Source of the DNA: a virus
Taxonomy: Duplodnaviria > Heunggongvirae > Uroviricota > Caudoviricetes
Length of the DNA: 10,374 bases
IMG/VR virus record: IMGVR_UViG_2778261513_000006
Coordinates: 1-10,374 of that record
Reading direction: 5' to 3' (one strand)
The notes beneath the pieces were generated by a model, which made no database searches, was not told the origin of the DNA, and worked only from the letters and a program-made list of their open reading frames with translations. Below are positions 2,287 through 5,542 of the stretch, piece after piece (the first letter of the stretch is position 1; every line of letters starts with the position of its first letter). The position numbers and the translations under genes were made by a program.

Positions 2287-5200
2287 ATGAACAGGACCAG
2301 TCCCCATTATTGTCGCCGCTCAGTACTTTCCTTATTGATATCTGCCTTGATATATGCCCCGCCCGGTATGGCGGCCTTCACTCCTGATGTTATTGGTGTG
2401 GTAAACGATGAGACTGTAGATGGCAACCAAAAAGTGGATGAACGAGGTACAACAAATAACACTCATATTATCAACCATGGCCAGCAGAATGTTCATGGCG
2501 GGGTATCTAATGGAAGTCTTATTGAATCTGGTGGATATCAAGATATAGGAAGTCATAACAATTTTGTGGGGCAGGCTAATAATACAACCATTAACGGTGG
2601 CAGACAGTCAATTCATGACGGGGGTATTTCCACAGGTACGACAATCGAGAGTGGCAATCAGGACGTTTATAAAGGGGGTATCAGCAATGGAACGACAATT
2701 AAGGGCGGTGCTTCACGCGTAGAGGGAGGGAGTGCGAATGGAATACTCATTGATGGTGGTAGCCAGATAGTAAAAGTTCAAGGGCATGCTGATGGTACAA
2801 CGATAAATAAGTCTGGCTCTCAGGACGTAGTACAAGGAAGTCTGGCAACGAACACAACCATAAATGGTGGTCGACAGTATGTTGAACAGAGCACAGTAGA
2901 AACAACAACCATTAAAAATGGCGGTGAGCAAAGAGTATATGAGAGCCGTGCGCTGGACACGACGATTGAAGGCGGAACTCAGTCTCTGAATAGTAAGTCA
3001 ACGGCAAAAATTACGCAGATCTATTCTGGTGGCACGCAAATTGTTGATAACACCAGCACCTCGGATGTTATTGAAGTTTATTCCGGTGGCGTGCTTGATG
3101 TTAGTGGTGGTACGGCAACAAATGTTACCCAGCACGATGGTGCAATTTTAAAAACAAACACTAACGGTACGACGGTGAGCGGTACGAATAGTGAAGGTGC
3201 ATTCTCCATCCACAATAAAGTGGAAGACAATGTGTTGCTGGAAAATGGAGGCCATTTAGAAGTATCTCATTCCGCAAACAAGACGATTATTAAAGATAAA
3301 GGAACAATGTCAGTTTTAACGAATGCTAAAGCTGATGCGACCCGAATAGATAATGGCGGGGTTATGGATGTTGCAGGAAACGCGACAAATACCATAATTA
3401 ATGGTGGCACACAGAATCTTAATAATTATGGCATAGCCACAGGCACCAATATCAACAGCGGAACGCAAAATATCAAAAGCGGTGGGAAAGCTGACACAAC
3501 AATTATATCCTCCGGGAGCCAGCAAGTTGTTGAGAAAGATGGTACGGCAATTGGCAGCAATATTAGCGCCGGAGGCTCGCTGATTGTCTATACCGGCGGT
3601 ATTGCACATGGGGTTAACCAGGAGACGGGCAGTGCTTTAGTTGCCAACACGGGCGCAGGGACTGATATTGAAGGATACAACAAGCTCTCTCACTTCACTA
3701 TTACCGGAGGGGAGGCTAATTATGTTGTGCTGGAAAATACCGGCGAACTGACGGTAGTGGCTAAAACCTCGGCGAAAAATACTACCGTTGATGCTGGCGG
3801 TAAGCTGATTGTCCAGAAGGAGGCTAAAACAGATACCACCAGACTTAATAATGGTGGCGTTCTGGAGGTTCAGGACGGTGGTGAGGCTAAGCATGTTGAG
3901 CAACAATCCGGCGGCGCATTAATTGCTTCCACAACTTCCGGAACCCTTATCGAAGGAACCAACAGTTATGGTGATGCTTTCTACATCAGGAATTCAGAAG
4001 CTAAAAATGTAGTGCTGGAAAACGCTGGCTCATTAACAGTCGTCACTGGTTCCCGGGCAGTTGATACGATTATTAATGCCAACGGCAAAATGGATGTTTA
4101 TGGAAAAGATGTTGGCACTGTACTTAATAGTGCTGGCACCCAAACAATATATGCCAGTGCCACTTCTGATAAAGCAAATATCAAAGGTGGCAAGCAAACG
4201 GTATATGGTTTAGCCACTGAGGCAAATATTGAAAGTGGTGAACAAATTGTTGATGGTGGGTCAACTGACAAAACGCACATCAATGGCGGCACACAAACCG
4301 TTCAGAATTATGGTAAGGCGATCAATACCGATATCGTCTCTGGCCTACAACAAATTATGGCAAACGGGATAGCGGAAGGTTCCATTATTAATGGGTGTTC
4401 ACAGGTAGTTAATGAGGGCGGTCTGGCTGAAAACTCGGTGCTTAATGACGGCGGCACACTCGATGTGCGGGAGAAAGGCAGCGCAACGGGGATACAGCAG
4501 AGTAGCCAGGGCGCTTTGGTTGCAACCACCAGGGCGACGCGGGTCACAGGAACACGCGCGGATGGCGTCGCGTTCAGCATCGAGCAGGGTGCGGCGAACA
4601 ATATCCTGCTGGCAAATGGCGGCGTGTTAACCGTGGAGTCAGACACCTCTTCTGACAAAACACAGGTCAATACGGGCGGACGGGAGATCGTCAAAACAAA
4701 AGCCACTGCGACAGGCACGACGCTCACCGGCGGCGAACAAATCGTCGAGGGGGTGGCGAATGAGACAACGATTAACGACGGCGGAATACAAACAGTTTCA
4801 GCTAACGGAGAGGCAATAAAAACAAAGATCAATGAAGGCGGTACGCTGACAGTTAACGATAATGGCAAAGCGACAGATATCGTCCAGAACAGCGGTGCCG
4901 CTCTCCAGACGAGCACGGCTAACGGTATTGAAATCAGCGGTACTCACCAGTACGGCACTTTTTCCATTTCCGGCAATTTAGCGACCAATATGTTGCTGGA
5001 AAATGGCGGTAATTTATTGGTATTAGCAGGTACCGAAGCTCGCGACTCCACGGTTGGCAGCGGTGGAGCCGCCAACGGCAGTTATCGCAGCAACGGGCTG
5101 GGCGGTCACATTGAAACCGGGATGCGATTTACCGATGGTAACTGGAACCTGACGCCGTATGCATCGTTAACGGGGGTTCACCGCTGATAACCCTGAATAT

Positions 5201-5542
5201 CATTTATCCAATGGCATGGAATCGAAATCAGTCGATACCCGCAGTTTATATCGTGAACTGGGTGCAACGCTGAGTTACAACATGCGTCTGGGGAACGGTA
5301 TGGAAGTTGAGCCGTGGCTGAAGGCGGCTGTGCGCAAAGAATTTGTCGATGATAACCGGGTGAAAGTGAATAGTGACGGTAATTTCGTCAATGATTTGTC
5401 GGGCAGACGTGGAATATACCAGGCAGGTATTAAAGCCTCATTCAGCAGTACGTTAAGCGGGCATCTTGGGGTGGGGTATAGCCATGGTGCCGGTGTGGAA
5501 TCCCCGTGGAACGGGGTAGCTGGTGTGAACTGGTCGTTCTGA
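2287..5542 (+). pseudogene. AIDA-I/Ag43-type (type Va) autotransporter adhesin, disrupted by a frameshift in a G5 run at 5172-5176; translocator domain appears shortened
   Basis: ORF 2158..5187 (likely true start ATG 2287, with AGAGG about 9 nt upstream; signal-peptide-like MNRTSPHYCRRSVLSLLISALIYAPPGMAA). The passenger is built of about 19-aa Gly/Thr-rich repeats of the form GG.Q.V..G..A..TTI.. typical of AIDA-like beta-helix adhesins, followed by longer repeat units of roughly 100 aa. The separate ORF 5216..5542 encodes the C-terminal beta-barrel strands and ends in the typical aromatic terminus ...GVNWSF. Removing one G from GGGGG (5172-5176) joins the two frames into ...NWNLTPYASLTGFTADNPEYHLSNGMESKS.... 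Only about 150 aa of beta-domain-like sequence remain, where about 250-300 aa are usual, suggesting an additional internal deletion. Confidence 0.75.

Follow-up and report, generated by a model that had tools for sequence, protein, structure and literature searches.

An apparently non-functional, decaying allele of the chromosomal ypjA/ehaD autotransporter adhesin gene of Escherichia coli, with an internal deletion and a frameshift

Background

A class Va autotransporter depends on its own complete beta-barrel and linker for translocation of the passenger through the outer membrane. Chromosomal AIDA-like autotransporter genes commonly decay, and in Escherichia coli K-12, ydbA, yaiT and ycgH are decayed genes of this class, disrupted by frameshifts, deletions or IS elements. 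The described protein of most direct relevance here, YpjA (b2647) of K-12, or EhaD of EHEC O157:H7, is a class Va autotransporter adhesin of the AIDA-I type (SAAT-related, 'Group 4'). YpjA has been grouped with the biofilm-forming autotransporter adhesins (PMC9289746) and recognized as the homologue of EhaD (PMC12547504). To work, intact YpjA requires a Sec signal peptide, a beta-helical passenger with AIDA repeats, a pertactin-like junction domain, an alpha-helical linker and a C-terminal barrel of 12 strands, which inserts in the outer membrane and exports the passenger.

Here we describe a broken gene in a window of 10,374 nucleotides (the whole stretch of DNA that was analyzed, from IMG/VR virus record IMGVR_UViG_2778261513_000006). 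This gene is, almost certainly, a copy of the chromosomal E. coli adhesin gene ypjA/ehaD that has lost its function and is decaying.

Results and discussion

Identity of the gene

The window derives from the ileY–ssrA region of E. coli. Judging from its position in the locus and the approximately 97% nucleotide identity to K-12 ypjA, the broken gene is the ypjA/ehaD orthologue. The gene order is that of the K-12 ypjA locus, namely, ileY (tRNA-Ile), which itself lies outside the window, DUF5507/DUF5508 (ypjC/ypjB), a recombinase remnant (pinH), ypjA and the ssrA 3' end. When compared with K-12 ypjA (4581 bp, 1526 aa), the window allele yields two BLAST HSPs, with 97.6% and 97.1% nucleotide identity. 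Copies identical to the window at the 100% level are present in many unrelated strains (megablast of window positions 2000-5700, with 5426 complete E. coli genomes as the database), and MS 85-1 carries a deletion allele identical to that of the window. Because the lesions described below are supported by orthology at 97% nucleotide identity and not by a statistical pattern, chance is no issue for these calls. The parts of the pseudogene are as follows.

2287..5187, + strand: 5' reading frame of the ypjA/ehaD pseudogene, from the signal peptide to the premature stop (ORF 2158..5187, annotated start ATG at 2287)
2287-2373, + strand: putative signal peptide MNRTSPHYCRRSVLSLLISALIYAPPGMA, one residue different from K-12 YpjA
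within 2287..5187, + strand: AIDA-repeat, beta-helical passenger (Pfam PF16168, 12 stretches, E=1.3e-139)
5057..5069, + strand: deletion junction (two BLAST HSPs against K-12 ypjA)
5172..5176, + strand: GGGGG tract (GGGG in K-12, by gapped alignment)
5185..5187, + strand: premature TGA stop, made by the frameshift
5171..5542, + strand: what is left of the beta-barrel C-terminus, read in the +1 frame up to ...GVNWSF (translation; stop at 5540-5542)
5216..5542, + strand: 108-aa ORF with an internal ATG (RefSeq CDS WP_000444409.1, 'autotransporter outer membrane beta-barrel domain-containing protein')

The passenger frame also contains the TIGR04415 repeats (NCBIfam). In other genomes, RefSeq refers to the locus as 'adhesin-like autotransporter YpjA/EhaD, incomplete', accompanied by a separate small barrel CDS, or as 'AIDA repeat-containing protein, frameshifted', and across hundreds of RefSeq genomes the allele already has the status of a pseudogene. 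Searches of the literature turned up no paper that describes this specific truncation of ypjA/ehaD. The allele is a case of ordinary gene decay, and there is nothing unusual about it.

A 1320-bp in-frame deletion

The two HSPs share 10 nt of the window and are separated by 1320 nt in K-12 ypjA. Thus, the window allele lacks 1320 bp (440 codons), corresponding to K-12 ypjA nucleotides ~2787-4106 and codons ~930-1369, and the deletion is in frame. The crossover falls within a common GCA at window positions 5057-5059, and the junction lies inside imperfect 13-bp direct repeats, with GCAAGGGTGGGGC as the left copy in K-12 and GCAGCGGTGGAGC as the right copy, that match in 11 of the 13 positions and both encode G/S-x-G-G-A; in the protein, ...ARDSTVG is joined to SGGAANGSY.... 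Illegitimate recombination between these two repeats would account for the removal of the 1320 bp.

In K-12 YpjA, Pfam delineates a Pertactin domain (residues 1057-1179) and an Autotransporter beta-domain (1265-1504), with a proline-rich stretch at 1179-1240. Lost with the deletion are approximately 130 residues at the end of the AIDA-repeat passenger, the pertactin-like junction domain, the proline-rich linker and the first ~105 residues (~40%) of the beta-barrel, which would amount to roughly five strands at its start. The pertactin-like junction domain (PF03212), which falls inside the deletion, is absent from both frames of the window allele in Pfam searches. Even after the frame is repaired, ~157 residues of translocator precede the C-terminal NWSF, and these cover only positions 98-254 of the 255 of the PF03797 profile, whereas K-12 YpjA covers 1-254; the initial estimate from the sequence alone, about 150 residues or half of a beta-domain, was accurate. 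The closest solved beta-domains to the YpjA C-terminus are those of BrkA (PDB 3QQ2) and Vag8 (PDB 7AKV). The K-12 C-terminus aligns with BrkA over the full length of its translocator (residues 2-284; E=4e-24), and the part of the barrel that is kept in the window allele corresponds approximately to BrkA residues 128-284 (3QQ2, 284 aa), so that, by our estimate, about the last seven of the 12 strands would be retained. The window allele thus has no linker helix and complete 12-strand barrel in frame with the passenger.

The sequence-only reading, made for the interval 5100-5220, had suspected a second lesion that removed the linker helix and the first strands. Such a lesion is real, in the form of the deletion described above, but its extent had been guessed too small and its junction lies just upstream of that interval. 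It was alignment to an intact relative, the approach proposed in that reading for sizing the gap, that revealed the 440 missing codons and the incomplete barrel.

The frameshift at the G tract

The second lesion is located 113 nt downstream of the deletion junction, where the gapped DNA alignment of the window (AACGGGGGTTCACC) with K-12 (AACGGGGTTCACC) shows a +1 insertion. The extra base at the GGGG(TT) site shifts the frame, with translation ending four codons on; past the deletion junction, the 5' frame contains ~40 residues of the barrel before the premature stop. The description of this lesion in the sequence-only reading held in all its parts: the passenger frame, in the + strand ORF 2158..5187, stops with TGA at 5185-5187; the C-terminal portion of the barrel is open in the +1 frame from 5171, directly after a TAA at 5168-5170, to ...GVNWSF and the TGA at 5540-5542; and removal of one G from the GGGGG at 5172-5176 yields ...ASLTGFTADNPEY..., in agreement with the reading of K-12 YpjA, in which the tract is GGGG. 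The +1 frame matches the Pfam Autotransporter profile PF03797 over positions 147-254 of 255 (E=4.4e-13) and TIGR01414 over positions 312-432 of 432.

As to the origin of GGGGGTT, insertion of a T into an in-frame GGGGGT allele, a form found in some intact genes (see below), was considered but is not favored: by its flanking SNPs, the window allele is no nearer to that allele than to K-12 (16 vs 17 mismatches). Insertion of a G into the common G4TT is the simpler route.

The 108-aa ORF in the tail of the pseudogene covers only positions 164-254 of the 255 of the PF03797 profile, and no Shine-Dalgarno-like motif is visible in the sequence upstream of it. This ORF (WP_000444409.1) is a fragment of the pseudogene tail, that is, an annotation artifact and not a gene. 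A terminator scan flagged no terminator directly after the pseudogene.

Distribution of the two lesions among E. coli genomes

The 5426 complete E. coli genomes were surveyed by megablast with probes that each consisted of a 42-nt junction piece joined to a 38/39-nt tract piece; the probe pieces share fewer than 28 contiguous bases with the alternative allele and, accordingly, receive no megablast seed from it. The deletion junction was detected in 323 of the 5426 genomes (~6%), in 322 of these together with G5TT and in none with G4TT. The intact right breakpoint combined with G4TT was present in 2443 genomes, and the intact breakpoint combined with a G5-like tract in 51; about half of the 5426 genomes have a more divergent ypjA or none at all and so fall outside these exact-seed probe classes.

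The intact alleles with a G5-like tract are, in 50 of the 51 cases, GGGGGT, a T-to-G substitution that replaces Phe with Val and keeps the frame, as in strain SWHEFF_69, which has an intact ypjA of 4569 bp; positions 4009-4060 of the locus sequence from this strain are equivalent to window positions 5172-5178. The remaining genome, BHUCD02 (NZ_CM183444.1, 2778218-2778966), has a seemingly full-length ypjA with G5TT and, taken at face value, could be an intermediate in which the frameshift came first and the deletion later. We rejected this interpretation: the sequence matches K-12 at 100% over the 317 nt that precede the breakpoint and the window allele at 100% over the 432 nt that follow it, the switch between the two types falls exactly at the deletion breakpoint, and the chromosome coordinates mirror those of MG1655. 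The BHUCD02 locus is probably a chimera of reference-guided assembly, in which a real deletion was filled with reference bases. Among the 5426 complete E. coli genomes, there is no credible case of a genome with just one of the two lesions, and either the deletion or the frameshift may have come first.

History of the haplotype

Five further carriers of the deletion were sampled (W2-5, STEC005, A17, 4600 and 23CRST035), and all differ from the window allele by 3.4%. The deletion haplotype therefore exists with two passenger backgrounds. In a multiple alignment without STEC005, all the differences are confined to the 5' ~2.3 kb, and none occurs in the 3' ~900 nt, which contain both lesions. The two lesions are co-inherited as one haplotype, and the 5' half of the passenger is a recombination mosaic, as would be expected if the haplotype arose once and its passenger region recombined afterwards. 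At approximately position 3259, the window-type allele is 6 nt shorter than K-12 and the W2-5 type. Three of the five additional carriers (A17, 4600 and 23CRST035) contain an extra 1-nt deletion, a -1 frameshift at the equivalent of window position 3011 that is flagged in RefSeq. The decay is progressive, and this further frameshift in other carriers of the haplotype indicates that the passenger frame is under no visible constraint.

Fate of the product and alternative interpretations

Each of the two lesions by itself should abolish surface display. With a barrel that is truncated as well as out of frame, and going by the established biology of autotransporters, no surface adhesin would be expected from this allele. 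The most that the gene could yield is a passenger fragment of 966 aa, signal peptide included, which would be stranded in the periplasm for want of a translocator; such a residual product may exist, as nothing interrupts these 966 codons in the window-type allele.

The inactivation could be illusory if the extra G were an error of sequencing or assembly at the homopolymer and the true gene were in frame, as the sequence-only reading had allowed. G runs indeed are error-prone on some platforms, and the BHUCD02 assembly is visibly unreliable at this very locus, but the identical G5TT next to the identical junction in 322 independent complete genomes, from many laboratories, hosts and countries, with G4TT in none, effectively excludes an error; moreover, the in-frame version still would lack 440 codons, including half of the barrel. 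The same survey bears on the notion that slipped-strand mispairing at the tract switches the adhesin between ON and OFF states (phase variation). Homopolymeric G runs within adhesin genes do serve other bacteria as classic contingency loci, and the related Ag43 is phase variable, albeit through a different, Dam/OxyR mechanism. The tract here, however, is only 5 nt long, and variation of its length among related strains, which would be expected of a contingency locus and for which the sequence-only reading had proposed to look, was not observed: G5TT is found in at least 322 of the 323 deletion alleles and G4TT in none of them, the 2443 intact alleles have G4, and the other G5 among the intact alleles, in 50 genomes, is the GGGGGT substitution and not a change of length. 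There is no functional in-frame state either, given that the ON form still would miss half of the barrel. A switch, accordingly, has next to no chance of being the correct explanation, and the preference of the sequence-only reading for decay over phase variation is borne out by the absence of G4 from the deletion alleles and the invariance of the tract within the haplotype.

A different kind of objection is that the truncated products keep or have gained a function, be it the 966-aa fragment (in the periplasm, in vesicles or exported via a paralogous barrel), a product of low-level +1 ribosomal slippage on GGG-G, or the 108-aa fragment. In favor of this scenario, the passenger frame is open over 966 codons in the window-type allele, and the 108-aa fragment is annotated as a CDS in RefSeq. 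Nevertheless, we consider it very unlikely: other carriers of the same haplotype have the additional frameshift in the passenger, and no ribosome-binding site is visible for the 108-aa ORF, which spans profile positions 164-254 only. As for slippage, no stimulatory element is evident, and the frameshifted product would be devoid of PF03797 positions 1-97. A gene that is expressed by programmed ribosomal frameshifting was also considered and rejected because the intact orthologues are unshifted at this site (G4) and the trans-frame product would be half a barrel. There is, similarly, only a slim chance that the 966-residue passenger is expressed and has a translocator-independent role, periplasmic, vesicle-associated or exported in trans by a paralogous barrel; if true, such a role would explain the persistence of the broken allele in ~6% of E. 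coli. Decay of the adhesin gene remains, by far, the preferred interpretation.

Neighboring sequence

Upstream of the pseudogene, the window contains an intact 457-aa ORF (1-1374, + strand) that encompasses DUF5507 (residues 1-160) and DUF5508 (195-457). The K-12 counterpart of this ORF is annotated as two genes, ypjC and ypjB, and this split is probably the broken state. Downstream, a degenerate copy of the ssrA (tmRNA) 3' end (5703-5742), 5 nt shorter than the corresponding part of the intact ssrA of W2-5, lies by the end of a P2/186-like prophage (7407-9963) with the following genes.

7407-8426, - strand: integrase
8430-9068, - strand: CI repressor
9454-9963, + strand: CII/CP76 gene

A 513-aa protein encoded at 5872-7413 (- strand) belongs to the antiphage GapS1 family of NCBIfam (NF047931; score 401.6 bits, cutoff 320) and has no match in Pfam or PADLOC-2023. 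Its gene overlaps the 3' end of the phage integrase gene by 7 nt and looks like defense cargo at the edge of the prophage. In strains without the insertion, ssrA directly follows ypjA, and in other strains ISEc12 or a different island occupies this position; the ypjA–ssrA site is a variable integration hotspot.

Implications and comparison with known autotransporters

The importance of these observations is mostly a matter of annotation hygiene. Catalogues of adhesins, presence/absence surveys and GWAS in which a nucleotide match is enough to score ypjA/ehaD as present would take a dead allele for an adhesin in ~6% of E. coli genomes, and the same allele is the source of a spurious 108-aa 'beta-barrel domain-containing protein' in RefSeq (WP_000444409.1). 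In addition, the locus provides an example of stepwise decay of an adhesin pseudogene, with a deletion and a frameshift, then recombination and then another frameshift.

With K-12 YpjA, the window allele shares the chromosomal locus, the AIDA repeats, the C-terminal ...NWSF and, except for one residue, the signal peptide. Unlike K-12 YpjA, it lacks residues ~930-1369 and contains the +1 frameshift, so the translocator that the passenger needs cannot be made. In this respect, it resembles the decayed AIDA-like genes of K-12, but ydbA, yaiT and ycgH occupy other loci and carry other lesions, and no IS element is involved in the window allele of ypjA.
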